A stretch of 64,000 nucleotides of DNA, taken from Patescibacteria group bacterium. Its GTDB lineage: Bacteria; Patescibacteriota; Patescibacteriia; UBA9934. Shown piece after piece: positions 11,814-61,494 of this stretch (position 1 is the stretch's first letter; each line of letters begins with the position of its first letter). The stretch spans positions 4,352 to 68,351 of the forward strand of contig JBAZWW010000003.1 in assembly GCA_041660165.1 (NCBI GenBank), in the 5' to 3' direction. Made by a program: the position numbers and the translations under genes. The notes below the pieces were generated by a model. The model saw only the letters and a program-made list of their open reading frames with translations. It ran no database searches and was not told the DNA's origin.

Positions 11814-11933
11814 AGATTTTCTTACGGTCGCATTGGCGCCGTAGCAGTCGAGACGATGCTCGACCAGTGATTTAGTGAGGGGAATATAGCGGAAAAGGGC
11901 AGGTGAGTCAAGAAACCCTGGCCCCAATTCTAC

Positions 11934-11953
11934 CCCTCCTCACGTCGGGGTGG
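11934..11953. repeat. Short GC-rich intergenic repeat CCCCTCCTCACGTCGGGGTGG (type 2)
   Basis: Near-identical copies at 16348-16369 and 33686-33706. Confidence 0.5.
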
Positions 11954-11987
11954 AAAACTGAAACCCGCACATGGAACTGGTAAACAA

Positions 11988-13721: not shown

Positions 13722-13807
13722 GGGACAATCGTCATGATACGCCGGGCCCGCGGGGACCGGCGTATCGTTGTTTTTATACTCGGCCAACGTGTACAATTTG
13801 GATAACT

Positions 13808-14326
13808 ATGCATCCCATCATTGCCATTGTGGCCCCAAGCGGGGCCGGGAAGACCACGCTGATTGATAGAGCAATTGCCCGGCTCCCGGACAAAATTGGC
13901 CGAATAATTTCTTTCACTACCAGGCCTCAAAGAACCGAGGCAGACACACTGTGGTATGAATTTGTTTCTCGCGAAGAAGTCGAAAAACGAAAAACTGCCG
14001 GCCTAGTGGTGCAACTTATCGAGTTCAATGGCCACATCTACGGCACCGATCGTCCGCATATAAAGCAGGTTCTCGAACATAAAATCGGCATCCTCGCCGT
14101 AGTCGAACACGGCATTCAAACCTACATTGACGCCGGCATTCCGCTCATTGTCATCAAACTAGAACCCAAAGGCTTTACCCAGCCAGCAAGCCGAATAGCA
14201 GCTGACGAACTCCGCGCCCGAATCCCAATCCACATTGATAAAACCATCAAAAACGACTTTGCCCTCGGCGGATTAGAAAAAGCAACTGAGGAACTGGTGA
14301 GCTACATCGAGTCGTTGTCATCCTGA
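13808..14326 (+). CDS. gmk: Guanylate kinase
   Basis: MHPIIAIVAPSGAGKTTLI (P-loop) ... SFTTRPQRTEADTLWYEFVSREEVE ... GHIYGT match Gmk signatures. Internal ATG of ORF 13574..14326. Confidence 0.75.
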   Translation: MHPIIAIVAPSGAGKTTLIDRAIARLPDKIGRIISFTTRPQRTEADTLWYEFVSREEVEKRKTAGLVVQLIEFNGHIYGTDRPHIKQVLEHKIGILAVVEHGIQTYIDAGIPLIVIKLEPKGFTQPASRIAADELRARIPIHIDKTIKNDFALGGLEKATEELVSYIESLSS

Positions 14327-14415
14327 GGCCGTCCGACGGCCGAAGGATCTGATTGGTCAAAATTACAAACGGCCCAGGGACGATTTCCCCGAGCCGCTAC
14401 ACGATATACGTCTGT

Positions 14416-15418: not shown

Positions 15419-15518
15419 TACACGCGGGTTACACTATTGTCAATCACGTTTGGCTTAGACTAGCCATGATTTGACATGATGTAATGGGTATGTTTACAAT
15501 GTACTCAAATACCCCTCT

Positions 15519-16292: not shown

Positions 16293-16347
16293 CGCTAGCC
16301 TCATCCCGCTCTACTTGGCAATCCCATCCCGAATGGCATCCTTGCTA

Positions 16348-16369
16348 CCCCTCCTCGCGTCGGGGTGGG
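16348..16369. repeat. GC-rich intergenic repeat (type 2 copy)
   Basis: CCCCTCCTCGCGTCGGGGTGGG. Confidence 0.5.
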
Positions 16370-16380
16370 AACCACTAGTG

Positions 16381-16430
16381 ATCGCCTCATCCTGATTACC
16401 AATCAGATCCTTCGCTCCGCTCAGGATGAC
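16381..16430. repeat. Palindromic MITE/REP-like intergenic repeat (type 1, partial left arm)
   Basis: cctCATCCTGAttaccAATCAGATCCTTCGCTCCGCTCAGGATGAC. Same family as 32302-32373, 45224-45253, 45554-45580 and 49459-49492. Confidence 0.6.
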
Positions 16431-16454
16431 AACATGCGCATGGCTCAGAATGAC

Positions 16455-19097
16455 TCATTCAATCTCCCCCCATCTCTTTCCAGTAGCCGTATCAACTACA
16501 AGCGGGATTTCCAGCCTTACTACGTCAGCCATCAGCTTTGGTACCTCGGCTTTCACGGCCTCAACGTCATCATGGTGAACTTCGAACACGAGTTCATCAT
16601 GCACCTGAAGGAGCATCTTCACGCGCAGTTTGCTTGATCTGATCCATTTATCAATTTTGATCATGGCCATTTTGATGATGTCTGCGTTTGTTCCCTGAAC
16701 CGGCATGTTCATGGCCATTCTTTCACTCGACGCAACCAGCTGGGGCATGCCCGATTGAATATCCGGCAAGTATCTCCTTCGACCGAACATCGTCTCGACA
16801 TATCCATCAACTCGCGCCTTCATCTTCGACGCATCAATAAACGCAGCGATGCCCGGATGGACCGCAAAGTATCTGTCGATGAAGTCCTTCGCTTCTTCAT
16901 AGCTCATGCCGATCCGGCGAGACAATGCTCGCGCACCTACGCCGTAAAGAATTGAAAAATTCGTGGCCTTCGCCGCCTCGCGCTGTTCCTTTGTCACCTT
17001 GTCTTCGTCGATGCCGAGAATATCGGCCGCGGTTCGGCGATGGATGTCAGCTCCTTCCTTAAAGGCTTTCAAAAATGGCTCGTCTTGGGCGAGCACAGCC
17101 GCAAGTCGAAGCTCAATCTGCGAATAATCGGCCGAGAGAAGTACATATCCTCGATCAGCAATGAAGGCGCTCCGGATCTCACGTCCAAGCTCAGACCGGA
17201 CCGGAATGTTCTGCACGTTCGGATTCATTGAGGACAAGCGTCCAGTAGCGGCAACGGTTTGGTTAAACGTCGTGTGAATTCTGCCATCCTTCGCCACAAG
17301 TTGTGGCAGGGAATCAGCGTAAGTGCTCTTGAGCTTCGCGATCTCTCGGTACTCGCCGACAAGCGGAATGATCTCATGCTCGTCCTCAAGTTTTTCAAGC
17401 TCTGGCGCCGCCGTCGAAAATCCGGTCTTCGTCTTCTTGATACCCTTCGTCGGCAAGCCGAGGTCTATGAACAAAATGTCAGCGAGTTGAGAAGGGGATT
17501 GGATGTTGAAATCCCTACCAGCGAGCTTATGAATCTTCGTTGTCAGCTTGCCGAGGGTTTTCTCAAACTCGCTTGAAAGCGAAACAAGCTTTTCCTGATC
17601 AACCGCGATGCCATCAAGCTCCATCTGGAACAACACCGGGATCAACGGCATTTCAATCTCCTCGAAAAGTTTCTGCATCCCCTCAGCCTTCACTTTCTTT
17701 TCAAGTTTTTCTTTTAAATGAATCAGGTGCGGAGCAAGCTCGTCAATCGGCGCATCCTCGGTTAGCTGTTGGCCGAGTGTCTCATTAATGACTTCGACGA
17801 ATGCAAGCTCGCGACCTCCTGGCGCCAAGAGATAGGCTGCCACCATAGTGTCGAAGATCGTTTTCGACCGAAGTTCGGCGAGCACATCAATGCCCATTTT
17901 CTGAAACACGTGATACGTAGCCTTGAGATCATGACCGATAATCATGTCCGCCCGCGAAAGCACCGCCATCACTCGCCGGGCTTCCTCCGCATTCACCTGA
18001 CTGCTCTTCCAATAGTGGTGCCCATCCGTCAGCACAATGCCGAGTGGCGATACCCCAAACAAATCCTGCTGTCCCTCCTGCAACAGAATCCCGATCTGCG
18101 AGAGATCAAGCTCGTTCAGCTCCTTCACGGCTTTTTTTCCGGCGGATCCGGGTCCGGCTTTGCCGAAAACTTTTTCAACTTTTTCAACTATCCCCGCCTC
18201 GCCCTTCTCGTCTCCCTTCTCCTCATATTTCTGAACGAGCTTCTTAAACTCAAGCCCTCGAAACAGCTCAAGCAATTTCTGCACATCCGCCGGTTTCATC
18301 TCGGATTCCTCGTACGAAAACTCAGGAATTTTCATGTCGCGCACGATCGTTACCATCTTGCGCATGAGCTCGACATTTTTCTCCTGGCCATGAAACTTCT
18401 TTTCATACCTATGTTGCAACATGCCCTCATGAAGCGCCTTCATGATCCCATCAACAGTTTTGTAGGACGACAAAAGCTCGCCGGCACCCTTCTCACCTAT
18501 CCCCTCGATCCCTGGCAAGTTATCGGATGTGTCGCCGATCAAGGTTTTCAAGTCGATCAACTGGTTCGGATTCAAGTTATATCTACTCTGCACTGCCGTT
18601 ACGTCGTATAATTTCACCTCGGACAAACCTTTGACGAAGAAAACAACCTTCGTATTCGGTGAGACGAGTTGCAACGCATCAAGGTCACCGGTCACGATCA
18701 AGGTATCAATATCGCCCCGTTCCTCATTCATCGCCGAGACGGTGCCAAGGATGTCATCGCCCTCAAATCCTTTGACTGAAAGTGAAGGAATTCCGTACGC
18801 CGTAAGAATTTCCTGAATAATCGGAATCTGTGCGTACAATTCGTCCGCTTTCTTCTCTCGATGCGCCTTGTACGGCGCATAAGCAACGTTGCGAAACGTT
18901 CCACCCGGCAAATCCCAAGCCACAGCCATGTAATCCGGCTTGTAAGCACCGAGCATTTTCTCGATAACATTGGTAAAACCGTAAACGGCATTGACCACTC
19001 GACCATCCGCGGTCGTTAGTGGGGGAATGGCGTGCCAGGCTCGATGTAAGAGTGCATTACCGTCCAGAATCAAAAATGTTTTTCGTGGGTTTGACAT
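16455..19097 (-). CDS. polA: DNA polymerase I
   Basis: 880 aa. 5'-3' exonuclease N-terminus (FLILDGNALLHRAWHAIP), a 3'-5' exonuclease-like middle region, and family A polymerase motifs (RRTAADILGI...KATNFSILYG, QVHDELVFEV). Confidence 0.9.
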   Translation of the reverse strand: MSNPRKTFLILDGNALLHRAWHAIPPLTTADGRVVNAVYGFTNVIEKMLGAYKPDYMAVAWDLPGGTFRNVAYAPYKAHREKKADELYAQIPIIQEILTAYGIPSLSVKGFEGDDILGTVSAMNEERGDIDTLIVTGDLDALQLVSPNTKVVFFVKGLSEVKLYDVTAVQSRYNLNPNQLIDLKTLIGDTSDNLPGIEGIGEKGAGELLSSYKTVDGIMKALHEGMLQHRYEKKFHGQEKNVELMRKMVTIVRDMKIPEFSYEESEMKPADVQKLLELFRGLEFKKLVQKYEEKGDEKGEAGIVEKVEKVFGKAGPGSAGKKAVKELNELDLSQIGILLQEGQQDLFGVSPLGIVLTDGHHYWKSSQVNAEEARRVMAVLSRADMIIGHDLKATYHVFQKMGIDVLAELRSKTIFDTMVAAYLLAPGGRELAFVEVINETLGQQLTEDAPIDELAPHLIHLKEKLEKKVKAEGMQKLFEEIEMPLIPVLFQMELDGIAVDQEKLVSLSSEFEKTLGKLTTKIHKLAGRDFNIQSPSQLADILFIDLGLPTKGIKKTKTGFSTAAPELEKLEDEHEIIPLVGEYREIAKLKSTYADSLPQLVAKDGRIHTTFNQTVAATGRLSSMNPNVQNIPVRSELGREIRSAFIADRGYVLLSADYSQIELRLAAVLAQDEPFLKAFKEGADIHRRTAADILGIDEDKVTKEQREAAKATNFSILYGVGARALSRRIGMSYEEAKDFIDRYFAVHPGIAAFIDASKMKARVDGYVETMFGRRRYLPDIQSGMPQLVASSERMAMNMPVQGTNADIIKMAMIKIDKWIRSSKLRVKMLLQVHDELVFEVHHDDVEAVKAEVPKLMADVVRLEIPLVVDTATGKRWGEIE

Positions 19098-19132: not shown

Positions 19133-20383
19133 ATGGAAAACTTCGACGTGCTGATAGTTGGGGCGAGTTTCTCTGGGCTAACCTTAGCGCATCATCTTCC
19201 TCGTCATCTGCGAGTATTGATTGTCGATGCAAAACCAGGCGCCGGCAGTACTGTCGAATCCACTGGTTTAATCACCGAAAAAACCCGCGCCGAGTTTCTC
19301 TCGTTCTTTCCGATTGACCGGTATATTACTAATCCGATCAGCTCAATTTGCGTGGTCGCTCCTAATTTTACTGACCATTTCGTTTCAACGGTGAAGGAGC
19401 CGTGGATTTATCAAACAGATACCAAGGCGCTCATCCGATCACTCGCGGATACGCTCCCCCAAAATGTAACGCTCAAAACCTCGACGATTTATCTTACGAG
19501 TAATCGGCCCCACAATCCAACCTCAGCCACTATCCGAACACTCGGCCAGGAACCAGAAGAAATCGGCCTCAAGTTCCTCGTCGGAGCCGATGGGGGACAC
19601 TCGAAAGTTGCTTCGACGAATCTCACGCTCAGCAAAAATACCCGTTTTCTTTTTGGTTACGAGCAAGTTTTCTTTGGCGAGGTGTTACTCGGCCCAAAAC
19701 CCGCAGAAACAATTTTCCACTATTGGTTTGGCGAGTTCTCCCTCGGCTACGGTGGTTGGCTCTCGCCAACGGTTGTTGAAGGACGCAAAGCCTTCCGCAT
19801 CGGCCTCGCCAAGTTAATGAAAGACAGAGGTGAAGCCAAGGGCCTCATGGAATCCTTCATGAAAAAGTTAGTCGAGCTCGGTCATATTCGAGTAGAAGGC
19901 GAAATCACTGCACCTGGATACGTTTTCGGCTCGCATATCCCTCTCGGCGGTCCTCGGTTAAAAATTGCCGACGGCAATACGCTCTTGATAGGCGATGCCG
20001 CGGGATTCTGCGGAGCCTTCGCCGCTGACGGCATCAAAGGCTCGGTCATCTCCGGCAAAGAAGCCGCGCGAGTCATTGACGACTACCTGCAAGGAAGAAC
20101 CGAAGCCGTTCACACTTTGCGCCAACGCATGAACCAGCACGGCGGAATCATGAAATATTACGTCCGCCAGCTGGCCTACCGCTTCATCTGGGACCGCATG
20201 CGGACTGATCGCTCATTCACGGCCATGTTCGGGATCATCTCCGCCGAACACGAGTCCTTCCTGGAACAATTCTGCGACAGCAAAGACAAGCACCGCTCCC
20301 TAGCCTGGACCGTCTTGAAACCAAGACATGCCGAGAAACTGGCCAGGTATGCTTGGTATTTGATTTGCGATTTGGTGAAATAA
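19133..20383 (+). CDS. FAD-dependent oxidoreductase, geranylgeranyl reductase family
   Basis: N-terminal dinucleotide-binding DVLIVGASFSGLTLA, plus LVGADGGHSKVA and GDAAGF motifs; 416 aa. Confidence 0.65.
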   Translation: MENFDVLIVGASFSGLTLAHHLPRHLRVLIVDAKPGAGSTVESTGLITEKTRAEFLSFFPIDRYITNPISSICVVAPNFTDHFVSTVKEPWIYQTDTKALIRSLADTLPQNVTLKTSTIYLTSNRPHNPTSATIRTLGQEPEEIGLKFLVGADGGHSKVASTNLTLSKNTRFLFGYEQVFFGEVLLGPKPAETIFHYWFGEFSLGYGGWLSPTVVEGRKAFRIGLAKLMKDRGEAKGLMESFMKKLVELGHIRVEGEITAPGYVFGSHIPLGGPRLKIADGNTLLIGDAAGFCGAFAADGIKGSVISGKEAARVIDDYLQGRTEAVHTLRQRMNQHGGIMKYYVRQLAYRFIWDRMRTDRSFTAMFGIISAEHESFLEQFCDSKDKHRSLAWTVLKPRHAEKLARYAWYLICDLVK

Positions 20384-31363: not shown

Positions 31364-32290
31364 CTATTTCTTTTTTTTGTCGTGGAACTCTTTGTACACG
31401 CGCCCCAGCTCTTTATCCGTAATATGGGTATACACCTGCGTCGTCGTAATCGACTCGTGTCCAAGCAATGATTGCACCGCGCGAATATCGGCGCCGTTTC
31501 GCAGTAAGTCTGTAGCGTAAGTATGTCGCAACGTGTGCGGGGTTACGCGTTTAGTGATCCCCGCTTCTCGAGCGTAGCGATCGACGATCCGCTGAACCGA
31601 GCGGGGAGTGAGCGGTTGGGCGCTCGCCGAAGAACGTCGAGCTCGATCATGCCGTACAAAAAGATAAGGCGAGGTGTCCTTGCGATGATCGAGATACGCC
31701 TTAATCGAACGCTTGGCATCGTCCGACAAGTAGACAATGCGATGTTTCTTGCCTTTGCCGAGCACCGTGAACTCATCCCGTTTCAAATTGATATTTTCGA
31801 TCTTCAAAGTCGAAGCCTCGGACACGCGCATACCGGTCGAAAACAAAAGCTCGAGCATGGCCTTGTCGCGATAACCAACAATGGTTGGGTCGTTCAACGG
31901 GCCGGCGCGAAATCTTTCGAACTCGTCGGCTTCGAGAAAACTCACATGCCTGGTGCCTTGTTTCGCGAGTTCGATCTTCTCAGCAGCCATGCTCTTAATA
32001 TCTCTCTTCGCGAGGTACTTCAGGAACGCTCGCAAAGCGATCAGGTGATAATTTTGCGTATTCTTTTTCAAATTCGCTTCCTCTCGCCCCGCAATGTCTC
32101 GGTTCAAATGAAGCCGGTACTTCCGCACCATTTCCTGCGTAATCTCCTGCGGATTGGGATGCTTGGCCCAATCCGAAAACCTGCTCAGATAAAAATGGTA
32201 ATTTTTCACCGTCTTATCCGACCGCCCACGCTCGATCTCCAGGTACTCAAGAAATTCTTTAATGTATTTGGCAAGTATGTTCTTTGGCAT
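31364..32290 (-). CDS. Tyrosine-type site-specific recombinase/integrase (XerC/XerD-like)
   Basis: 308 aa. N-terminal SAM-like core-binding domain. Catalytic motifs GMRVSEASTL (R), HTLRHTYATDLLRNGADIRAVQSLLGHESITTTQVYTH (H-x-x-R...Y). Confidence 0.85.
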   Translation of the reverse strand: MPKNILAKYIKEFLEYLEIERGRSDKTVKNYHFYLSRFSDWAKHPNPQEITQEMVRKYRLHLNRDIAGREEANLKKNTQNYHLIALRAFLKYLAKRDIKSMAAEKIELAKQGTRHVSFLEADEFERFRAGPLNDPTIVGYRDKAMLELLFSTGMRVSEASTLKIENINLKRDEFTVLGKGKKHRIVYLSDDAKRSIKAYLDHRKDTSPYLFVRHDRARRSSASAQPLTPRSVQRIVDRYAREAGITKRVTPHTLRHTYATDLLRNGADIRAVQSLLGHESITTTQVYTHITDKELGRVYKEFHDKKKK

Positions 32291-32301
32291 ATTACGATGT
32301 T

Positions 32302-32373
32302 GTCATCCCGAGCAGAGCGAGGGATCTGAATGGCCAATCAGATCCTTCGTCGCTAAAAGCTCCTCAGGATGAC
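32302..32373. repeat. Complete palindromic MITE/REP-like element (type 1 exemplar) abutting the integrase start
   Basis: GTCATCCCGAGCAGAGCGAGGGATCTGA-atggccaa-TCAGATCCTTCGTCGCTAAAAGCTCCTCAGGATGAC forms a long imperfect hairpin. Confidence 0.65.
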
Positions 32374-32705
32374 ACTGACCGTGTGTCGCACATTGTACAC
32401 CCGCGGTACCGTATAAAGAGTTGACCTCAGCCATTTTCCGGTGTATCCTCCTGCCTCTGCGTCGCCTGACGCGGATCGAGTTCCTTTCGTTCCATGGAGA
32501 GTTCGTGCCCCTGCCTCATGAGGCTCCCAGCCTCCCGCCCGTTGATCCCTTTGGCGAGCAACCGCTCGCGACCTTTGACGAGAGGGAAGACTTTCGCCCG
32601 CGCCTGTCAATCTACAAATTGCCCGGTACAGGCAGGTTGCCCCTTGTCCCAACGTCTCACCCTAGCCCAGCCGTACCGTACGAGCTGGAAAAATCATGGA
32701 GAGCG

Positions 32706-33616: not shown

Positions 33617-33685
33617 TCTCACCCCGAGGTAACGAGGGGTAGCATGGAGGTCATTGGTTCAAACAAGTTTCAGTAGCCAATTCTA

Positions 33686-33706
33686 TCCCTCCTCACGTCG
33701 GGATGG
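33686..33706. repeat. GC-rich intergenic repeat (type 2 copy)
   Basis: TCCCTCCTCACGTCGGGATGG. Confidence 0.45.
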
Positions 33707-33756
33707 AGATCAGTCCGGTTGTTCGACAGATATAATTCATTCACTTTTTTCTTGCT

Positions 33757-34425: not shown

Positions 34426-34450
34426 ACGATCGAGCAACCGGACGGGTTCC

Positions 34451-34532
34451 CATCCCGAGCAATGCGAGGGATCCGACTTTCCCCTGTGACAGTGGAGAGG
34501 GTCGGGCCCTTCGCTCTCGCTCAGGGTGGGAT
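34451..34532. repeat. Long palindromic intergenic repeat (type 3 copy)
   Basis: CATCCCGAGCAATGCGAGGGATCCGAC...GTCGGGCCCTTCGCTCTCGCTCAGGGTGGGAT. Related to 53121-53200 and 61379-61467. Confidence 0.6.
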
Positions 34533-34593
34533 AAGATGAGCACTTCGTGCACACCGAATAGGAACTAACGTAAAAGGGTAAAATAATAAAACT

Positions 34594-36795
34594 ATGGACT
34601 TGAAATCGTATTCGATTGATTTTGGCGGAAAGAAACTGACGATTGAGACAGGGAAGTTTGCCAAGGCAGCTAATGGAAGCTGTACCGTGCGTTACGGAGA
34701 CACCGTTGTGCTCGCCACGGCCGTGATGAGCAAAGACGTGCGACCAGGACTAAGCTTTTTCCCGCTCATGGTTGATTTTGAAGAAAAGCTTTACGCAGCG
34801 GGCCGGATCAAAGGATCTCGCTTTATCAAGCGCGAAGGACGTCCGACTGATGAGGCAGTCCTCGCCGCTCGTTTTATTGACCGAGCAATCAGACCGCTGT
34901 TCGATCAACGAATTGCTAACGACGTGCAGGTCATCATTTCGGTCATCGCGTTTGATCAAGAAAATGACGCCGACATTCCAGGTTTGATCGCCGCGTCCTG
35001 CGCGCTTCACATGAGCGATATTCCGTGGAACGGCCCAATTGCTGTGGCTCGCATCAACGCTGACGCCGAGGGCAAATTCATTCTGAACGGTACATATGCT
35101 GAACGCGAAATTGCCAAATTTGACGTAGACGTAGCCGGTAATTCAGAAAAAGTCATCATGATTGAAGCCGGTTGTGATGAAGCGCCGGAAGATGAAGTGA
35201 TTGACGCCATTGCCTACGGACGCGAGAGCCTTGGCCCGGTTATCGAGCTGATTGAAAAGGTTCGCTCTGAATGCGGAAAACCAAAAGTCGATCTCATCAC
35301 GCCCAAAACGGACAGTGCAAAACGGATTGCCGAAAAAACGGATGATCTACGCGCTCTCCTTGCCCCATTCACAAGAAAAACGATCCAGGAACTTTTCTTT
35401 GCCGTACCAAAAGCCACAAAATCCGAACGCGCTCTGGCCAAGGATCAAATGAAAAAACTCACCGTCGCCTTCTTAACTGAACAAGGCCAAGATGAAGAGG
35501 GGATTATCATTGGCAAGTCCTTGCTCGGCGAATTACTCGACGCAGAAATCACGCGCACAATTATTGAGGACGGCAAGCGCGTTGACGGACGCGGACTTTA
35601 TGACGTGCGCGAACTTTCAAGCGAAGTGGCGCTCTTCCCGTGCGTGCACGGTTCCGGTTTCTTTAACCGCGGTGAAACACAGGTGCTGTCGATCGTAACG
35701 CTTGGCGCTCCTGGCGATAAGCAGACGCTGGACGGCATGGAATTAGTCGGCGAGAGACGATTCATGCACCACTACAACTTCCCCCCATTCTCTGTGGGCG
35801 AGGCCAAACCATTACGCGGAGCCGGACGCAGAGAAATTGGCCACGGCGCACTGGCAGAAAAAGCCCTCGCTTTCATGATTCCGGACAAGGAAACGTTCCC
35901 CTACACCATTCGCGTGGTATCCGAAGTACTCGGTTCTAATGGATCGAGTTCTATGGGCTCAACCTGCGGTACCTCACTCGCACTTATGGACGCTGGCGTG
36001 CCGATCAAGGCCGCAGTTGCTGGAATCGCCATGGGACTGGCGTCGAACGGCAAGAAATATCAGGTCATTACTGATCTCCAGGATCTCGAAGATGGCGAAG
36101 GCGGAATGGACTTCAAGATTACAGGCACTCGAAAAGGTATTACGGCTATTCAGCTCGACACCAAGACGGACGGCATCCCGCATGACGTTATTGTTGAGGC
36201 CGTTACCCGCTCGCAAACTGCCCGCATGAAAATTCTCGACGTGATGGCAACGGCCATCCCCACGCCTCGAGCCGAGCTTTCACCAAACGCTCCGCGCATC
36301 ATTAACATTCAAATCAATCCAGACAAGATCCGCGAAGTTATTGGTTCGGGCGGAAAGACAATCAATGAGATTATCGAGAAGACGGGTGTTTCAGATATCG
36401 ACATCGAACAAACCGGTCTTGTTATGATCACCTCATCTGACGCGGAATCAGCCCAGAAAGCATATGATTGGATCTACAACCTGACGCGTGATCTCCAGGT
36501 AGGCGAGGTCTTCTACGGTGAAGTGGTCCGCCTCATGGACTTTGGCGCCTTCGTTCAGGTGCTCCCCGGAAAAGATGGCCTGGTCCATGTTTCCGAGATG
36601 GCCCCATGGAGGGTCGAGAAGGTAACAGACGTCGTGAACGTTGGCGATAAGGTTCATGTGAAGGTCATCGAGATAGATGAAAAAGGCCGAGTGAACCTCT
36701 CCATGAAACAGGCCGAAGGAAACGTGTACACTGATGAGATGAAAGCCAAGGCTTCCACGGGATCTTCAAAACCCGCCGGCAAGCGCTACGTGTAA
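34594..36795 (+). CDS. pnp: Polyribonucleotide nucleotidyltransferase (PNPase)
   Basis: 733 aa. Two RNase PH-like domains, KH (IREVIGSGGKTINEI) and S1 (GEVFYGEVVRLMDFGAFVQVLPGKDGLVHVSE) domains. Confidence 0.9.
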   Translation: MDLKSYSIDFGGKKLTIETGKFAKAANGSCTVRYGDTVVLATAVMSKDVRPGLSFFPLMVDFEEKLYAAGRIKGSRFIKREGRPTDEAVLAARFIDRAIRPLFDQRIANDVQVIISVIAFDQENDADIPGLIAASCALHMSDIPWNGPIAVARINADAEGKFILNGTYAEREIAKFDVDVAGNSEKVIMIEAGCDEAPEDEVIDAIAYGRESLGPVIELIEKVRSECGKPKVDLITPKTDSAKRIAEKTDDLRALLAPFTRKTIQELFFAVPKATKSERALAKDQMKKLTVAFLTEQGQDEEGIIIGKSLLGELLDAEITRTIIEDGKRVDGRGLYDVRELSSEVALFPCVHGSGFFNRGETQVLSIVTLGAPGDKQTLDGMELVGERRFMHHYNFPPFSVGEAKPLRGAGRREIGHGALAEKALAFMIPDKETFPYTIRVVSEVLGSNGSSSMGSTCGTSLALMDAGVPIKAAVAGIAMGLASNGKKYQVITDLQDLEDGEGGMDFKITGTRKGITAIQLDTKTDGIPHDVIVEAVTRSQTARMKILDVMATAIPTPRAELSPNAPRIINIQINPDKIREVIGSGGKTINEIIEKTGVSDIDIEQTGLVMITSSDAESAQKAYDWIYNLTRDLQVGEVFYGEVVRLMDFGAFVQVLPGKDGLVHVSEMAPWRVEKVTDVVNVGDKVHVKVIEIDEKGRVNLSMKQAEGNVYTDEMKAKASTGSSKPAGKRYV

Positions 36796-38035: not shown

Positions 38036-38125
38036 TAACTGTGGATAACTTGGGTATAAGTAGGATAACTTGCACACTTCTTGTACTCAAAGGGTGAACA
38101 CCCCCTGTACTCGATTATCCACATG
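38033..38125. promoter_or_regulatory. DnaA-box cluster (second oriC-like element) with adjacent AT-rich stretch
   Basis: TGTGGATAA at 38040-38048. Three GGATAACTTG-type repeats (38033-38070). TTATCCACA at 38115-38123. AT-rich 38150-38205 (agatatataaattgtttacaatttgtac). Confidence 0.4.
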
Positions 38126-39510: not shown

Positions 39511-41025
39511 ATGTTTGGTCTTGAAGCCTTGCATGTGCGAGTAGAAACAGACATTTCAGGCGGTCTGCCCAGGTTTCACCTTGTTGGCCTGCCTGATACA
39601 GCAACGACCGAGGCACGCGAACGCGTGAAGGCTGCTATCAAAAATACCGGCCTGCAGTTTCCAAGGCCAGTGATTACCGTAAATCTCGCGCCGGCCGAGG
39701 TGAAGAAGCATGGTTCGGCGTACGATCTGCCGATTGCCATCAGCATCCTGGTGGCCGACGATCAGATTCCTGACAGCGACTTTCTGCGCGGAACAATGTT
39801 CTTGGGCGAACTGGCACTCGACGGAAACGTCAGATCGACAAATGGCGTCCTGCCCTGCGTCCTCTTGGCAAAAAAACTCGGCTTCACGGCGGTGGTTGTG
39901 CCGTTTGAAAACGCGCGCGAGGCATCTCTCGTACAGGGCATTAACGTTCACGCGGTGAAAACACTCGACGAGCTGGCTGGCGCGCTGAAAGACGGACGAT
40001 CATTGCCGGTGGTCGAGTACATCGCGGACGATTCGCCGTGCGACTTCGGCATTATTGCCAGTGATTTCAAACACATTGTCGGGCAAGACAGAGCCAAGAG
40101 GGCGCTGGAAATTGCCGCGGCCGGCGGGCATAACGTCCTACTTTCCGGCAGTCCGGGAAGTGGAAAGACTTTGCTCGCCCGCTCGCTTCCAGGAATTCTC
40201 CCGCCGTTATCGTTTGATGAATCACTCGAAGTCACCGCGATCCACTCGGTTCATGGCACCTTGCCGAAAGACCGGGTATTGATTCGCAACCGGCCGTTCC
40301 GCTCGCCCCATCACTCGGCCAGCGGGGTGGCGCTCGTGGGCGGAGGCGGGAACCCAAAACCGGGCGAGATCACCCTCGCGCACCACGGCGTCTTGTTTCT
40401 GGATGAGTTCCCCGAATTCCCAAGACACGCCCTTGAACATCTGCGCCAACCGCTGGAAGAAGGCAAGGTCACGGTCTCACGAGCCTCCGGCACCGTCGTC
40501 TTTCCCGCGCGCTTCATGCTGGTGGCCGCCATGAATCCCTGCCCGTGCGGGTATGCCTTTGACAAAGAACGCCCGTGTACGTGTTCAGAAATTTCTCGAC
40601 AACGCTACAGACAAAAAATATCCGGCCCTTTGCTTGACCGCATTGACCTGGTGGTCGAAGTTCCTCGATTGCCACTAACGAGTTTCAGCGATGCCGAGCG
40701 CGAACCATCAAGCGCTGTAGCACAACGAGTCGCGAACGCTCGTGCCTACGCGCAAACGCGATACGCGGGCGAACACATAGCCACGAACGCTGAGCTGACC
40801 AGCGCGCATCTACGAACACACTGCAAGCTAGACCCCGCTGATGCGGAGTATTTCCAACGCTCGGCTGAGAGGCTCAAGTTATCCGCGCGAGCGTACTCGC
40901 GAATGCTCAAAGTAGCGCGCACGATTGCGGATTTAGAACAAACACCCGCGATCACTCGCGGGCATCTCATGGAAGCACTACAGTTCAGATCAAACCTTAC
41001 CGGAGATACTCGTATGGGTTCTTGA
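39511..41025 (+). CDS. comM: YifB/ComM family Mg-chelatase-like AAA+ ATPase
   Basis: MFGLEALHVRVETDISGGLPRFHLVGLPDTA (Lon-like N-domain) ... LLSGSPGSGKTLLARSLPGILPPL (Walker A) ... VLFLDEFPEF (Walker B). About 504 aa from the internal Met; ORF 39433 overlaps the lspA end. Confidence 0.8.
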   Translation: MFGLEALHVRVETDISGGLPRFHLVGLPDTATTEARERVKAAIKNTGLQFPRPVITVNLAPAEVKKHGSAYDLPIAISILVADDQIPDSDFLRGTMFLGELALDGNVRSTNGVLPCVLLAKKLGFTAVVVPFENAREASLVQGINVHAVKTLDELAGALKDGRSLPVVEYIADDSPCDFGIIASDFKHIVGQDRAKRALEIAAAGGHNVLLSGSPGSGKTLLARSLPGILPPLSFDESLEVTAIHSVHGTLPKDRVLIRNRPFRSPHHSASGVALVGGGGNPKPGEITLAHHGVLFLDEFPEFPRHALEHLRQPLEEGKVTVSRASGTVVFPARFMLVAAMNPCPCGYAFDKERPCTCSEISRQRYRQKISGPLLDRIDLVVEVPRLPLTSFSDAEREPSSAVAQRVANARAYAQTRYAGEHIATNAELTSAHLRTHCKLDPADAEYFQRSAERLKLSARAYSRMLKVARTIADLEQTPAITRGHLMEALQFRSNLTGDTRMGS

Positions 41026-44702: not shown

Positions 44703-44984
44703 TTGATGACATGGTTTCGACAAAGAATGAACTCGAGTCTCTCGGTCATTCAGTCTACATGCCACCAACTCAGATTACGTTGCCTGACGGACGCGAGATC
44801 AGTACGGCTGAAATGTATGCGACTTACAAAACCGCCTAAGAGCGAGCCCCGTTGGTACGCACTCGGCAAAACGAACGAGGGACGCTTACTCTTCCTGGCC
44901 TTCACCATCCGCCATGAAAAAATCCGTATCATCTCAGCGCGAGACATGAGTAAACATGAACGACAAGCATATGCAAAAGCTTAA
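44703..44984 (+). pseudogene. BrnT-like toxin remnant (C-terminal half only)
   Basis: Only residues from about 44844 (EPRWYALGKTNEGRLLFLAFTIRHEKIRIISARDMSKHERQAYAK) match BrnT/DUF497. The expected N-terminal half is absent. The preceding 56-aa ORF 44669-44839 (MKITLCGSLKF...) is unrelated. Confidence 0.45.
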
Positions 44985-45225
44985 AATGATCCCGCAATTC
45001 AAAAACGAAGCCGCTGAACAGGCTTTCTGGGAGAAACACGACTCCAGTGAATATCTTGACTGGTCAAAAGCCAAACTGGCTGTTTTTCCTGAATTAAAAA
45101 CTTCAACGGAAGCAATTTCTCTGCGTTTGCCCACTTCGCTTCTCAGCCGTATAAAGTCGGCGGCCAATAAGATCGACGTCCCGTATCAGTCGTTCATCAA
45201 GATGATTATCGACAAAGCCGTCTAA
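44956..45225 (+). CDS. BrnA-like antitoxin
   Basis: 89 aa. EAAEQAFWEKHDSSEYLDW...ISLRLPTSLLSRIKSAANKIDVPYQSFIKMII matches BrnA (RHH-like) antitoxins. It overlaps the BrnT remnant. Confidence 0.6.
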   Translation: MNDKHMQKLKMIPQFKNEAAEQAFWEKHDSSEYLDWSKAKLAVFPELKTSTEAISLRLPTSLLSRIKSAANKIDVPYQSFIKMIIDKAV

Positions 45226-45253
45226 TCAGATCCCTCGCTTTGCTCGGGATGAC
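45224..45253. repeat. MITE/REP-like repeat (type 1 half-copy) immediately after the brnA stop
   Basis: AATCAGATCCCTCGCTTTGCTCGGGATGAC. Confidence 0.55.
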
Positions 45254-45259
45254 ACATAT

Positions 45260-45514
45260 ATGATCCTCTCCATCCACGTTAAACCAAAAGCCCACGAGAC
45301 AAAGTTCGTGAGCTGGCTAGACGACCACACGGCGGTTATTGCGATTCATGCGACGCCAAGTGATGGCGAGGCTAATCTCGAGCTGATCAAATTCCTTTCG
45401 GCCAAACTCAACGTCCCCAAAACGTTCATTCTTCTAAAAAGCGGGCACACCAGCCGGGTCAAAAAGGTTGAACTGCCGGAGGGGACTTCTCTTTCGGGGC
45501 TCTCTTCCCAGTAA
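45260..45514 (+). CDS. DUF167 (YggU) family protein
   Basis: MILSIHVKPKAHETKFVSWLDDHTAVIAIHATPSDGEANLELIKFLSAKLNVPKTFILLKSGHTSRVKKV fits the YggU family; 84 aa. Confidence 0.65.
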   Translation: MILSIHVKPKAHETKFVSWLDDHTAVIAIHATPSDGEANLELIKFLSAKLNVPKTFILLKSGHTSRVKKVELPEGTSLSGLSSQ

Positions 45515-45553
45515 AGCTACATTGTAGCTTTAGCAAAATGCTCTCGACCGATG

Positions 45554-45580
45554 CAGATCCCTCGCTCTGCTCGGGATAAC
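45554..45580. repeat. MITE/REP-like repeat (type 1 half-copy)
   Basis: CAGATCCCTCGCTCTGCTCGGGATAAC. Confidence 0.5.
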
Positions 45581-45598
45581 ACATCTCGGGATGGCGCG

Positions 45599-46616: not shown

Positions 46617-48020
46617 ATGGAAATTGGTTCGCCCATGAATACTCACGAACTTTGGCAGGCTGTTCTGGCCCGCCTTGAACTCAAGCTGAGTAAAGCGCAT
46701 TTCAGTACGTGGTTCCGCCAAACCTTTGTTTGCGAATACCGAATAGGGGAGGCCATCATTGCCGTGCCGAACAACATTGCCCAGTCGTGGCTGGAAAAGA
46801 AGTATTACAAAGACATCCTTGAAGCACTCCAGGCCGTGACGGACCAGCCGATCCGTAAACTAACGGTTCGCATTGAAACAAAGCCCCTTCCGCCACAACC
46901 CATTCAGCTCACCGCGCAGAAGCCCGCCCCCGCTGATGACTACGGTTTCCTGCCAACCAATGGCGCAGAGCCAATGCAGGCGCCAACGGGCAACATTTCC
47001 GTTAATCCCATCTACACCTTTCAAACATTCGTCGTCGGCAAACAGAACGAACTCGCCCACGCCGCGTCACAGGCCGTCTCCTCTCAACCCGGCGGAACGT
47101 ATAACCCGCTCTTCATTTATGGAGGCGTCGGACTCGGCAAAACCCACCTACTGCATGCCATAGCCAACGAAATCCGCAGAAAGTGGCAAAACGCCCGTAT
47201 CATGTATGTAACGTGCGAGCATTTCACGAACGACTTCATTCACTCTATCCGCTCTGGTAAGGGCAAGGAATTCAAGGATCGCTACCGCAATGTTGATCTC
47301 CTGCTGATCGACGACATTCAGTTTATTACCGGCAAAGAGGGGACTCAGGAAGAGTTCTTCCATACCTTTAACACGCTCCACCAGGACAACAAGCAGATCG
47401 TCATCTCATCAGACCGTCCACCGAAATCGATCGCCGGCCTTGAAAAACGCCTGCAGTCCCGGCTCGAATGGGGCATGCTCGTAGACGTTGGCACGCCGGA
47501 TCTCGAAACCAGGATCGCCATTCTCGAAAAGAAGTGTCTCGAGAAAGGCTTTCCTCTAAATAAGGAGATCCTGCAGTACGTTGCCTCAACTGTTTCATCG
47601 AACGTTCGCGAACTTGAAGGCGCTTTGAACAAAATCATCGCCGTTCACCAGTTCCGCAACATGGAAGCAACCCTAGACACCATCAAACCGATTATTTCCA
47701 CGTTTGAGTCCGAAAACATCAAGAAAACTGTGACACCCAAGCAGGTCATCATGATCGTGGCGGCCTATTTCGACATTCAGATTGAGGACGTACTTGGCAA
47801 GTCTCGTGAAAAACGCCTAGCCTTCCCCCGACAGATCATCATGTTCTTACTTCGCGAGGAAATGAAGTCCTCGTACCCCACCATTGGCACAGAACTTGGC
47901 GGTAGAGATCACACCACTGCCATGCACGCACACTCAAAGATCATGAATATGCTTGATTCTGATGATAAACTTCAGAAAGACCTCGAGCTTATCAAGCAAC
48001 GCCTGTACACCGGTGTATAA
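46617..48020 (+). CDS. dnaA: Chromosomal replication initiator protein DnaA
   Basis: 467 aa. ELWQAVLARLELKLSKAHFSTWF (domain I). Walker A GGVGLGKTHLL. Walker B LLLIDDIQF. Sensor/box VII. C-terminal DNA-binding helix (HTTAMHAHSKI). The start may be the internal Met at 46635. Confidence 0.9.
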   Translation: MEIGSPMNTHELWQAVLARLELKLSKAHFSTWFRQTFVCEYRIGEAIIAVPNNIAQSWLEKKYYKDILEALQAVTDQPIRKLTVRIETKPLPPQPIQLTAQKPAPADDYGFLPTNGAEPMQAPTGNISVNPIYTFQTFVVGKQNELAHAASQAVSSQPGGTYNPLFIYGGVGLGKTHLLHAIANEIRRKWQNARIMYVTCEHFTNDFIHSIRSGKGKEFKDRYRNVDLLLIDDIQFITGKEGTQEEFFHTFNTLHQDNKQIVISSDRPPKSIAGLEKRLQSRLEWGMLVDVGTPDLETRIAILEKKCLEKGFPLNKEILQYVASTVSSNVRELEGALNKIIAVHQFRNMEATLDTIKPIISTFESENIKKTVTPKQVIMIVAAYFDIQIEDVLGKSREKRLAFPRQIIMFLLREEMKSSYPTIGTELGGRDHTTAMHAHSKIMNMLDSDDKLQKDLELIKQRLYTGV

Positions 48021-49433: not shown

Positions 49434-49458
49434 TGATCTGAATTACCATCTCATTTTC

Positions 49459-49492
49459 GGCCAATCAGATCCCTCGCTCCGCTCGGGATGAC
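49459..49492. repeat. MITE/REP-like repeat (type 1 half-copy) after dnaN
   Basis: GGCCAATCAGATCCCTCGCTCCGCTCGGGATGAC. Confidence 0.55.
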
Positions 49493-49537
49493 AGAATGGT
49501 TGAGACGGTAGAAAGATCGAAACGACAAAACAAAAAA

Positions 49538-49570
49538 AAGACCCCCGAGGATGCTCGAGGGCCTTTTTAG
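49538..49570. terminator. Bidirectional terminator between dnaN and the 3D-domain gene
   Basis: AAAAAAGACCCCCGAGGatgcTCGAGGGCCTTTTTAG. Confidence 0.5.
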
Positions 49571-53120: not shown

Positions 53121-53200
53121 CGGTTCTCCATCCTGAGCGAGAGCGAAGGATCCGACCCTCACCGGTGAAAGTCGGACCCTTCGCATAGCTCAGGGTGGGA
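53121..53200. repeat. Long palindromic intergenic repeat (type 3)
   Basis: GGTTCTCCATCCTGAGCGAGAGCGAAGGATCCGACcctcaccggtgaaaGTCGGACCCTTCGCATAGCTCAGGGTGGGAT forms a near-perfect hairpin of about 80 bp. Confidence 0.65.
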
Positions 53201-53215
53201 TCCCAACCAATCAAT

Positions 53216-61378: not shown

Positions 61379-61467
61379 GGTTCTCCATCCTGAGCCATGC
61401 GAAGGATCCGACTTTCCCTGCGAGACGCCGGGAGGGGCGGACCCTTCGCTCTCGCTCAGGGTGGGAT
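61379..61467. repeat. Long palindromic intergenic repeat (type 3)
   Basis: GGTTCTCCATCCTGAGCCATGCGAAGGATCCGAC...GGACCCTTCGCTCTCGCTCAGGGTGGGAT. Confidence 0.65.
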
Positions 61468-61494
61468 AGGGGGCATTGGCATAGATACATACAC

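Follow-up and report, generated by a model that had tools for sequence, protein, structure and literature searches.

The short palindromic repeats dispersed through the stretch of Patescibacteria DNA analysed here (64 kb in full, hereafter the window) are probably hairpin recognition modules of the Ssn/SRM kind, the DNA partner of stand-alone GIY-YIG nucleases of approximately 95 amino acids. Each module is an independent hairpin, and what looks like one complete element is a pair of such modules in inverted arrangement. The repeats are not a new kind of element but a variant, so far uncatalogued, of a repeat/nuclease system that is already known, and the window itself is an ordinary instance of an Ssn-type system.

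The window holds 13 type-1 modules, two half-copies and two remnants at nine intergenic sites, with the core consensus T-GTCAT-CCY-GA-GC-NNN-GC-GA-RGG-ATC-T. An earlier note on this DNA had described a 72-bp element at 32302-32373, which is present exactly as given, and had recognized a dispersed, intergenic and palindromic family resembling REP and MITE sequences, a description that stands. Its estimate of at least eight copies in 64 kb understated their number. A search with the 28-mer GTCATCCCGAGCAGAGCGAGGGATCTGA, allowing up to three mismatches, gave five matches against 0.00 expected from 100 shuffles, the further copies lying on the minus strand at 16403-16430, 45226-45253, 45553-45580 and 49465-49492; a looser core gave eight matches against 0.10 expected. 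These four further sites had been listed before as half or partial copies; those at 16381 and 49435 retain what is left of a partner arm that was deleted or truncated. A second subfamily (B), of the form CCCAT/CCCAC ... GGATCCGAC, is represented by three full doublets. The type-1 features of the window are as follows.

14316..14356, plus strand: single module whose apical stem is extended, GTCATCCTGAG-GCCGTC-CGA-CGGC-CGAAGGATC, followed by TGATTGG; the module proper is 14317-14349.
16381-16398: collapsed remnant of a partner arm, in the minus-strand site 16381..16454.
16406-16430, minus strand: module with the inner extension CCAATCAGATCC, same site.
16431-16454, minus strand: 5'-half 'stutter' copy GTCATTCTGAGCCATGCGCATGTT, same site, adjoining the polA stop at 16455-16457.
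32301..32374, no single strand: full doublet of a simple and an inverted 'two-tier' module, each arm self-folding.
32301-32327, plus strand: simple module T-GTCATCCCGAGCAGAGCGAGGGATC-T of this doublet, followed by the spacer GAATGGCCAATC.
32340-32374, minus strand: inverted 'two-tier' module GTCATCCTGAG-GAGC-TTTT-AGCGA-CGAAGGATC of the same doublet.
34447..34533, no single strand: subfamily-B doublet CCCATCCCGAGC-AAT-GCGAGGGATCCGAC ... GTCGGGCCCTTCGC-TCTC-GCTCAGGGTGGG, between an NYN-domain gene and the next plus-strand gene.
45222..45254, minus strand: single module, between the stop of a CopG-antitoxin gene (45225) and the start of a DUF167 gene (45260).
45553-45580, minus strand: single module, a GTTAT variant, in the site 45549..45594, with the convergent DUF167 and yidD genes on either side.
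45581-45594, minus strand: 5'-half stutter copy CCATCCCGAGATGT, same site.
49435-49447: inner-arm remnant GATCTGAATTACC of a partner module, in the minus-strand site 49435..49493, directly 3' of the dnaN stop.
49468-49492, minus strand: module with an inner extension, same site.
53125..53202, no single strand: subfamily-B doublet, between the stop of a PBP1 gene (53119) and the next start (53217).
61383..61468, no single strand: subfamily-B doublet, upstream of the oxidoreductase gene 61495-62670.

All of these copies are intergenic, several lie between co-directional genes, and their orientation relative to the neighbouring genes is mixed. The previous assertion that they always sit just after stop codons does not hold, since the element at 32302-32373 lies upstream of the Xer-type recombinase gene 31364-32290 on the minus strand, with 12 bp between it and the gene start. 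The G.A form of the module at 45222..45254 is antisense to both the CopG-antitoxin and the DUF167 gene, and the module at 14316..14356 provides, through its own CCTGAG, the TGA stop (14324-14326) of ORF 13574-14326. In the window, GTCAT...ATC is kept in subfamily A, and CCCAT/CCCAC...ATCC/GTCC is found in subfamily B. The expectation that such repeats would generate spurious conserved 'proteins' was correct, and ORF clusters carrying VILSAAKDL, CHPERSEGS, ILRCAQDD and DPSLRSG were found.

Given that a tyrosine recombinase gene adjoins the element, integron attC sites were considered and rejected. The recombinase is Xer-like: its scores are 246 and 238 bits with the XerC and XerD models, under all of the curated cut-offs, and 138 bits with the integron integrase model, for which the cut-off is 265. 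Nor do the copies resemble an array of attC sites that share one orientation, since they are dispersed among housekeeping genes and point both ways.

The hairpin of a module consists of an A-T and a T-A pair, three variable base pairs, the tandem G.A step, two more base pairs and a loop, with GTC on its 5' side and C on its 3' side. Covariation was assessed in 42 distinct 25-mers taken from loci ascertained by protein only, and because the search pattern set the GTCA prefix and the final TC, invariance at those positions is not independent evidence. Within this sample, 98% of stem cells are paired (20-49% in slid controls), five of the seven stem pairs exhibit compensatory changes, and double-change cells number 46 versus 10.7 in shuffles, with none of 500 shuffles attaining 46. 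Pairs of the G.U type are nearly missing among the covarying positions (4 of 294 cells), and the window modules fold in the register of the covariation alignment. The GTC...C flanks are independently backed by the window copies, which came from a repeat search, and by the bases outside the module, where T is found at position -1 in 83% and at position +1 in 82%. For single 27-nt modules, nearest-neighbour energies do not reach significance (z = -1.1 and -0.3), and the case for the module hairpin rests on covariation; the DNA hairpin of the module at 14316..14356 has an energy of -9.9 kcal/mol (z = -3.71). The apical part varies freely and includes the 'two-tier' form, which carries two G.A steps. 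In 11% of modules, tandem 5'-half 'stutter' copies border the outer edge. The earlier note missed both the self-standing nature of each half and the existence of a nuclease partner.

Modules are found either alone or in inverted pairs (doublets). In 93 of 134 doublets the stem sequence is not the same in both arms, and 82 of 105 differing arm positions still form Watson-Crick pairs within their own arm. Given that the arms differ and yet are internally compensated, we prefer per-module hairpins, and have rejected a long inter-arm hairpin as the selected structure. No target-site duplication is apparent among 183 doublets (direct flank identity is near zero, with three at width 1), which does not support the status of a classical MITE. 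The flanking base is inverted-identical (T...A) in 154 of these 183 doublets, and thus the palindrome simply extends outward. Doublet spacers have a bimodal length distribution (2-150 nt and approximately 300-400 nt). Because a subterminal segment of about 35 nt is common to the short doublets and the gene-bearing unit described below, as judged by manual alignment, the short doublets look like non-autonomous derivatives produced by internal deletion; BLAST comparison of short-doublet spacers with the gene-bearing element returned nested modules as the sole matches. No presence/absence polymorphism was seen among the other contigs found, which end inside the repeat (locus L001) or cover a module-free region (L206).

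At least 120 stretches of DNA from other genomes, representing roughly a dozen phyla, contain the exact 25-mer core, so that the copies are not confined to the window. Most carriers belong to phyla that are not named in the published survey of the Ssn system (PMC11893778), including Chloroflexota, Acidobacteriota, Gemmatimonadota, Patescibacteria, Bacteroidota and Cyanobacteriota. The sole recurrent neighbour at 120 loci ascertained by the repeat is a small GIY-YIG protein of approximately 95 amino acids, encountered at six to seven loci, and no transposase-like protein recurs beside the modules at these loci. We also examined the association in the reverse direction, using 80 loci ascertained by the protein alone and accepting an oriented module within 150 nt of the gene. 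Such a module is present upstream at 40 of 75 loci, downstream at 44 of 74 and on both sides at 25 of 69, compared with about 1% expected per side from a module background of 0.126 per kb. The gene order in other genomes is module > ssn-like gene < module, and an ssn-like gene is accompanied by several doublets on annotated plasmids of Planktothrix agardhii (given as linear in its record) and Spirosoma oryzicola (circular and complete). The nucleases of these two species have the accessions WP_083616022.1 and WP_232563592.1, respectively. By itself, this association may mean that the nuclease spreads the repeats or that it merely targets them.

The associated protein carries PF01541 as its only domain, and residues Y10, Y20, R30, H34, E67 and N86 are invariant. 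Its identity to the 94-aa SsnA orthologue of N. gonorrhoeae, which has Y6, Y17 and E64 and is surrounded by 16 dRS3/NTS repeats in 3.3 kb, is 47% (E = 3e-26). Membership of the Ssn family (CDD cd10448) has been defined by homology to SsnA of N. meningitidis with a tblastn E value below 1e-10 (PMC11893778). As judged from its sequence, the associated protein falls within this family, being a single-domain protein of about 95 amino acids that keeps the catalytic Tyr/Tyr/Glu set; this assignment was made through identity to the gonococcal orthologue. Many database homologues have N-terminal extensions of 20-60 amino acids. An AF2 model of the protein (pLDDT 91.6) has UPF0213 and Slx1 as its best folds. 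Its closest structural matches are stand-alone GIY-YIG proteins of the Slx1 and UPF0213 (YhbQ-like) types (1zg2, 6seh, 4xlg and 1ywl), and the catalytic Tyr, Tyr, Arg and Glu are kept; however, sequence similarity is marginal (E = 0.002 to 1zg2). Slx1 is a structure-specific enzyme for branched double-stranded DNA that requires Slx4. The link to Ssn emerged from the dRS3 repeats around the gonococcal nuclease homologue.

Ssn nucleases bind single-stranded DNA hairpins of this sort (NTS/SRM, extended dRS3), and their cut falls just upstream (Chenal et al. 2025, PMC11893778). They cut single-stranded DNA only and do not bind RNA, and the C directly after the palindrome is crucial for binding, whereas the three nucleotides upstream (GTC) are crucial for cleavage (PMC11893778). 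The modules described here have these very flanks. They share with SRMs a length of 25-35 nt, an orientation that follows from the conserved (H)GTCAT on the 5' side and C on the 3' side, intergenic copies in the hundreds, an SRM-ssn-SRM gene architecture and a single-domain GIY-YIG partner of about 94 amino acids. They are inverted-repeat hairpins within the 20-50 nt range of SRMs, the 5' GTC and 3' C are kept in subfamily A of the window, and in other genomes they flank ssn genes on both sides in inverted orientation. The frequency of association is also similar: at least one SRM accompanies 71% of ssn genes, and SRMs are present on both sides of 42% (Chenal et al. 2025, Nat Commun 16:2388, PMC11893778), while our strict pattern gives 53-59% for a single side and 36% for both. 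The chief difference is an invariant tandem G.A that interrupts the stem (CCY-GA-GC...GC-GA-RGG), whereas the SRM stem is continuous (TTCCCGCG). The published SRM string, HGTCWYN(0-2)YYVSBRHN(0-5)WNVSBRGN(0-2)RNCYNB, matches the positive controls (the gonococcal NTS and the hairpin of locus L104) but none of 399 tandem-G.A modules and no module of the window, where its sole match (40497-40529) lies outside the modules; one match was found in 80 loci of the associated protein subclade. Literature searches by exact repeat sequence, by encoded peptide and by GIY-YIG together with REP/MITE-type repeats returned nothing relevant.

The modules also resemble the dRS3/NIME repeats (ATTCCC-N8-GGGAAT), in that extended dRS3 (cGTCATTCCCGCGCAGGCGGGAATCtag) is built on an identical GTCAT...ATC frame and clusters around the gonococcal ssnA orthologue. 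However, the dRS3 stem sequence is different and lacks a G.A step, and no ATTCCC-N8-GGGAAT element is present in the window. Moreover, dRS3 is specific to Neisseria, whereas the tandem-G.A module is common to many phyla in almost unchanged form.

If the repeats serve as recognition modules in this way, an Ssn-type nuclease encoded outside the window would recognize the GTCAT... strand, that is, the G.A form. By analogy with the published enzymes, its binding would be to module hairpins in single-stranded DNA and limited to one strand, and the cut would fall a few nucleotides upstream of the module. Recognition would occur whenever the DNA becomes single-stranded, for example during transformation, conjugation, replication or repair, and would leave a nick just upstream. 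The repeat family may have spread as an IS-like or REPIN-like system, either selfish or domesticated, and its cellular effect would be the restriction of single-stranded DNA or the modulation of recombination, as in Neisseria (PMC11893778), and not transcription termination. We advance more tentatively, and with considerable doubt, the idea that the tandem-G.A hairpin (T-GTCAT-YYY-GA-GC-loop-GC-GA-RRR-ATC-T) constitutes a separate Ssn specificity class and that the module-ssn-module unit is an active, horizontally moving mini-element. The GIY-YIG hydrolase of about 95 amino acids would then drive its own copying and that of the gene-less doublets via nicks in single-stranded DNA. This mobility would create no target-site duplication and would not be based on known transposase chemistry, and the 5'-half 'stutter' copies would be footprints of the copying process.

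Several other explanations deserve consideration. A role for the repeats as RNA, in the form of 3'-UTR hairpins that terminate transcription or shield mRNAs from 3' exonucleases as some REPs do, would fit copies that are all intergenic and in several cases directly 3' of stop codons, and the whole doublet at 32301..32374 folds stably as RNA (-35.7 kcal/mol, z = -4.23; as DNA, z = -4.79). Yet no T tract follows any module, and none of the five elements between 44.5 and 62 kb is among the 31 terminator-like sites called there, whereas genuine terminators adjoin, such as the canonical bidirectional one at 49535-49568 that is separate from the dnaN-side module and downstream of it. These observations led us to reject the terminator use suggested earlier. 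In addition, orientation relative to the genes on either side varies, with one copy ahead of a start codon and another antisense between co-directional genes. No Rfam family matches the repeats: tRNAs alone pass gathering thresholds in the window, and nothing meaningful appears around the element at E ≤ 10. The scarcity of G.U among the covarying pairs, the DNA-nuclease partner and the absence of RNA binding by published Ssn enzymes (PMC11893778) point to DNA and not RNA, and we consider a function at the RNA level very unlikely. We give even less credence to REPs or REPINs mobilized by a RAYT (Y1 HUH transposase), or to classical MITEs derived from a DDE insertion sequence, despite inverted doublets of short palindromes that closely resemble REPINs and a dense intergenic distribution (13 modules in 64 kb). 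REP/REPIN-RAYT and IS200/IS605 systems, with the palindrome-associated derivatives of the latter, likewise feature short imperfect palindromes, hairpin recognition in single-stranded DNA, repeats that flank the partner gene and intergenic expansion, and the missing target-site duplication suits HUH-type transposition. MITEs such as Correia, RUP and Nezha are similarly short, non-autonomous inverted-repeat elements, and some of the present elements resemble them in seeming to derive from a gene-bearing unit by internal deletion. However, the only recurrent neighbour in 120 loci is the GIY-YIG protein, and it is ssn-like genes with which the modules are strongly associated on both sides. A GIY-YIG hydrolase in place of a Y1 HUH transposase implies no covalent intermediate and no known strand-transfer chemistry, and the type-1 foot is GTCAT/ATC, without the GTAG/CTAC tetranucleotide. 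A DDE-type MITE is further opposed by the lack of target-site duplication and of a DDE transposase, and by the fact that the 'terminal inverted repeats' here are self-folding hairpins that also exist as singletons.

It is also conceivable, if improbable, that the repeats are orphans whose ssn gene was lost or never present, and that the hairpins persist or multiply by recombination or gene conversion, or come in on transferred DNA, with no present nuclease partner and perhaps in the service of other host proteins. No ssn-like gene is present in the 64-kb window or in an additional 4.4 kb of the contig, and consequently the nuclease partner in this genome is assumed and not seen. These 68 kb represent under 2% of a typical genome, and thus the missing gene says little. 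An ssnA homologue is lacking in 19% of genomes with more than 200 SRMs (Chenal et al., PMC11893778), viral contigs carry the module in 82 stretches with an ssn gene in none of 80 loci scanned, and several window copies are truncated or collapsed. On the other hand, stem covariation and the GTC...C flanks are well kept in the window, including in the lineage-specific subfamilies A and B, which suggests ongoing constraint or recent spread.

Hairpins of this type are abundant in many phyla, including uncultured ones, and are a source of broken assemblies, spurious ORFs and false N-terminal extensions; once known as Ssn-type motifs, they can be masked and named. Because the survey string misses the tandem-G.A class, the reach of the Ssn system and the share of ssn genes with a cognate repeat have probably been underestimated. 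The tandem G.A step is a clear and testable candidate for a recognition feature. Ssn enzymes are being promoted as site-specific cutters of single-stranded DNA, and their range of specificities would be widened by a common enzyme/site pair whose target is different and well defined.

A second repeat (type 2) occurs in the window at 11933, 16348 and 33686 (three matches versus 0 expected). Its copies are as follows.

11930..11956, minus strand: single type-2 copy, with the G.A form on the minus strand.
16345..16371, minus strand: single type-2 copy, the sole one adjoining a type-1 element.
33617-33645, plus strand: arm CCCC-GA-G-GTAA-C-GA-GGGG-TAG of a type-2 doublet, site 33617..33709.
33683-33709, minus strand: inverted arm CCAT-CCC-GA-C-GTGA-G-GA-GGG-ATAG of the same doublet.

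Type 2 had been said often to sit beside type 1, which applies to the copy at 16348 but not to the other two of the three places. The design is again a tandem-G.A hairpin, with a GNRA loop and a TAG flank, and type 2 is a sibling family of type 1. Unlike those of type 1, type-2 modules terminate in (G)TAG.

The repeat unit of the type-1 family is a module of approximately 27 nucleotides rather than a 72-bp palindrome, and the element at 32302-32373, whose sequence is exactly as the earlier note gave it, is a doublet of two inverted modules. The dispersed family reported there is confirmed, in that the left 28-mer of this element has five matches in the window, itself included, at up to three mismatches (0.00 expected), and the looser core ATCCYGAGCNNAGCGARGGAT, again with up to three mismatches, has eight (0.10 expected). 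Repeat finding and reading of the sequence added four copies to those previously listed, so that the window contains 13 modules, together with two copies of the 5' half and two remnants of arms, spread over nine intergenic sites.

Added type-1 copies, and genes of the window referred to in the text
14317-14349, lone module with a long apical stem (apex GCCGTC-CGA-CGGC)
34447-34533, full doublet, second subfamily
53125-53202, full doublet, second subfamily
61383-61468, full doublet, second subfamily
31364-32290, minus strand, Xer-like recombinase gene, start 12 bp from the reported element
44703-44984, ORF of 93 aa, preceding and overlapping the antitoxin gene
44956-45225, CopG-type antitoxin gene (PF12441), a module immediately downstream
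46617-48020, dnaA, at the cumulative GC skew minimum

The window covers the origin region of a bacterial chromosome, with dnaA and dnaN at 46.6-49.4 kb, where cumulative GC skew reaches its minimum; its source is a metagenome assembly (ENA ERZ27249449, contig k141_1595947). Every module is intergenic, and orientation relative to the neighbouring genes is mixed. Copies had been said to lie always after stop codons; however, the reported element is located 12 bp upstream of the Xer-like recombinase start, and several others lie between co-directional genes. The inner extensions GGATCTGAWTGG and GGATCCGAC are found in the window copies and were not seen elsewhere, and therefore represent lineage-specific subfamilies.

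Modules conform to the consensus T-GTCAT-CCY-GA-GC-NNN-GC-GA-RGG-ATC-T, and each folds on itself: an A-T and a T-A pair are followed by three variable pairs, the tandem step G.A/A.G, another two pairs and a loop. Because single modules have unremarkable nearest-neighbour energies (z = -1.1 and -0.3), the case for this hairpin rests on covariation. To avoid circularity, 25-mers were taken from 80 loci ascertained by a protein query alone (the partner protein described below), using a search pattern that held GTCA, both GA dinucleotides and the final TC fixed, and 42 distinct sequences resulted. Among these, 98% of cells are paired, both sides have changed at five of the seven pairs, and one position exhibits T-A, C-G, G-C and A-T. 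Double-change cells number 46 versus 10.7 in shuffles (none of 500 reached 46), pairing falls to 20-49% when the 3' partner is slid, and G.U occupies only 4 of 294 cells. The G.A step is invariant in the 42 sequences by construction, the search pattern having fixed it, and the relevant support is its constancy in copies found otherwise. The apex varies, being a triloop, a tetraloop, a long extra stem (as at 14317) or a second G.A tier, the last exemplified by the right arm of the reported element (GAG-GAGC-TTTT-AGCGA-CGA).

In 200 fetched loci plus the window, 183 convergent module pairs lie within 600 nt of one another, versus 65 divergent pairs, and the doublet spacers are bimodal (2-150 nt and approximately 300-400 nt). 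In 93 of 134 short doublets the two arms have unlike stem sequences, and at 82 of 105 differing stem positions both arms remain internally Watson-Crick paired, which indicates selection on each hairpin rather than on a long duplex between arms. A target-site duplication is absent: the flanks show essentially no direct identity, and in 154 of the 183 doublets the bases just beyond the two ends are identical when inverted (T...A); T occupies position -1 in 83% of modules and position +1 in 82%. One to three tandem 5'-half 'stutter' copies (TGTCATCCTGAGC plus about 7 nt; period approximately 19-22) precede about 11% of modules (60/525) at their outer edge. They might be traces left by repair after upstream nicking, or serve as alternative partners in pairing.

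Stutter copies
16431-16454 and 45581-45594, window
Loci L031, L047, L110 and L157
Locus L289 (Planktothrix plasmid), 18540-18614 and 19180-19255

The family extends far beyond the window. The exact pattern GTCATCCYGAGCNNAGCGARGGATC, for which approximately 0.07 chance occurrences are expected in 596 Gb, is present both in species-representative genomes (at least 120 stretches) and in viral contigs (82 stretches). By record title, hosts among the matches listed include Acidobacteriota, Chloroflexota, Gemmatimonadota, Patescibacteria, Omnitrophota, Planctomycetota, Bacillota, Bacteroidota, Nitrospirota, Verrucomicrobiota, Bdellovibrionales and alpha-, beta- and gamma-proteobacteria, with isolates such as Hymenobacter glaciei and Acidicapsa dinghuensis represented.

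When all ORFs within 400 nt of the repeat were clustered for 120 loci among the matches listed, one real recurrent family emerged, a GIY-YIG-domain protein of approximately 95 aa; the remaining clusters are translations of the repeat itself, the spurious peptides that the earlier note had anticipated. In these repeat-found loci the gene is bracketed by inverted modules, which in one case (L082) lie 22 nt from its start and 36 nt from its stop. For the reverse test, metagenome contigs were searched with a protein alignment (584 of 600 candidates confirmed, 80 kept). Among the protein-found loci, 40 of 75 have a strict, correctly oriented module no more than 150 nt upstream of the start, 44 of 74 have one no more than 150 nt downstream of the stop, and 25 of 69 have modules at both ends of the gene. 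At distances above 600 nt these loci have a background of 0.126 modules per kb, counting both strands, or about 1% per side. On two annotated plasmids, one from Planktothrix agardhii (given as linear in its record) and one from Spirosoma oryzicola (complete, circular), the gene is accompanied by several doublets located in further intergenic spaces. Short Chloroflexota doublets have about 35 nt of subterminal sequence in common with a gene-bearing unit, as would be expected if short doublets are internal-deletion derivatives.

GIY-YIG is the sole Pfam domain of the partner protein, which matches no NCBIfam model; its invariant catalytic positions are Y10, Y20, R30, H34, E67 and N86. The family comprises 13,308 clusters at 50% identity with E <= 1e-3 (4,094 at E <= 1e-10), and members are still approximately 70% identical across phyla, and their names go no further than 'GIY-YIG nuclease family protein' or 'putative endonuclease'. 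AlphaFold models the protein with confidence (pLDDT 91.6), and the best matches of this model among solved structures are UPF0213 BH0048, Slx1-Slx4 and EF2693, ahead of UvrC.

This family has been named Ssn (cd10448) by Chenal et al. 2025 (PMC11893778). Neisseria meningitidis SsnA, a 94-aa protein for which Y6, Y17 and E64 are essential, binds its hairpin target (NTS) only as single-stranded DNA and on one strand only, cuts a few nucleotides upstream, and does not act on double-stranded DNA or RNA; binding depends most on the C directly after the palindrome, cleavage on the three nucleotides that precede the palindrome (PMC11893778). In Neisseria the system restricts incoming transforming single-stranded DNA, and the authors compared NTS-ssnA-NTS to an insertion sequence and to REP/RAYT. 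Their Ssn-related motif (SRM), defined by a degenerate string, lies near 71% of homologues and on both sides of 42%, and among genomes in which SRMs number more than 200, 81% have a gene for a homologue (PMC11893778). Our partner protein and the gonococcal orthologue, in which Y6, Y17 and E64 are present, share 47% identity (E = 3e-26). A tblastn hit in Neisseria gonorrhoeae led to the homologue there (94 aa), which sits among 16 dRS3 repeats in 3.3 kb; the extended dRS3 cGTCATTCCCGCGCAGGCGGGAATCtag and the window modules share the frame GTCAT...ATC.

Window modules and SRMs have in common a hairpin, oriented GTC...C flanks, intergenic abundance, gene architecture and the partner family. However, the module stem contains an invariant tandem G.A, whereas the SRM stem is continuous. 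The published string matches none of 399 tandem-G.A modules, no window module, and only one sequence in the 80 loci of the partner-protein subclade, although it does match the gonococcal NTS and a hairpin in locus L104. Given that the stem differs and that the modules formally do not match the published search string, we assign the window modules to a variant class of the Ssn/SRM kind, not to SRMs as operationally defined. The Ssn system itself is already known (2025); the modules represent a form of its DNA motif that is very widespread and had not been catalogued. This finding is ordinary for the window, and the wider point, that the published definition misses the tandem-G.A class, is worth a specialist's attention.

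The analysis has shown the structure of the modules, their architecture, their association with the gene and the homology of its product. On that footing we consider it likely that the modules are recognition hairpins for an Ssn-type single-stranded DNA endonuclease, whose presence elsewhere in this genome we infer. The substrate would be the strand reading GTCAT, nicked just 5' of GTCAT whenever that strand is single-stranded, with some presumed consequence for the cell, and the copies of the family would be derivatives of module-ssn-module units that spread in non-autonomous form. There is no ssn-type gene within the window or the extra 4.4 kb of contig, and it is possible, though rather unlikely, that these are orphan repeats without a current partner (68 kb examined).

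The earlier note had viewed the elements as selfish, REP-like sources of spurious ORFs, a characterization that stands, and also as terminators, which does not, since no module in the window is accompanied by a T tract. The terminator-like sites in 44.5-62 kb include none of the five elements there, and convincing terminators lie close to modules, for example at 49535-49568, just beyond the dnaN copy. The missing T tracts, mixed module orientation and scarcity of G.U pairs together make a role at the RNA level, as terminator or stabilizer, very improbable. We give almost no credence to mobilization of the REP-RAYT or DDE-MITE kind, for which the 120 loci among the matches listed have no such recurrent neighbour gene and the duplication is absent.

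The type-2 repeat is a sibling of type 1. Its form, CCA[CT]-CCC-GA-S-GNRA-S'-GA-GGG-[GA]TAG, follows the same design, with 4-5 bp, a tandem G.A, a closing pair that covaries between G-C and C-G, a GNRA loop and a (G)TAG end; the foot pair also covaries. A nuclease or RAYT partner specific to type 2 may exist.

Type-2 copies in the window
11930-11956
16345-16371
33617-33709, inverted doublet

Several minor observations concern the window. The genes at 44703-45225 are probably a toxin-antitoxin pair. Most gene starts adjoining elements (53200-53220, 61480-61497, 34580-34596, 45254-45262) lack a Shine-Dalgarno sequence, a hint of a host of the Bacteroidota/FCB type. A short minus-strand ORF at 32353-32434, with ATG at 32434 and a Shine-Dalgarno-like GGAGG, runs into the reported element (MAEVNSLYGTAGVQCATHGQCHPEELLATKDLIGHSDPSLCSG*); ORFs between 32374 and 33600 have no Pfam matches, and this 1.2-kb stretch beside the element is unannotated. 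DnaA-box-like TTATCCACA-type sequences (AGTTATCCTTCTCATACACATGTTATCCACAGTT / AACTGTGGATAACTTGGGTATAAGTAGGATAACT) lie within inverted-repeat pairs at 9743-9776 and 38037-38125, 8-37 kb from dnaA.

Modules can also provide the stop codon and final residues of an upstream gene, as for ORF 13574-14326, whose TGA (14324-14326) lies in a module, and for an ssn-like ORF in locus L080 (1156-1180), which ends ...DPSLRSG*. In two unrelated records (L289, 13848-19131; L203, 3164-6282), an ssn-like gene is directly downstream of an MmeI-type restriction-modification gene. The former is Planktothrix agardhii plasmid p1 (NZ_LR882964.1), where both genes lie inside a DISARM operon and the annotated 4.7-kb MmeI CDS contains three module doublets (15456-15551, 17094-17168, 17178-17273), which are either in-frame insertions or a sign of over-extended annotation. 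A rhizobial ssn homologue with 52% identity (L292, Sinorhizobium meliloti CP090106.1, around 1492-1782) lies between two directly oriented copies of another palindromic repeat (CATCCCTGTGCTCGTCACAGGGATG then GCGCCGCGTCTGCGGCGC), which may be a further cognate motif class.
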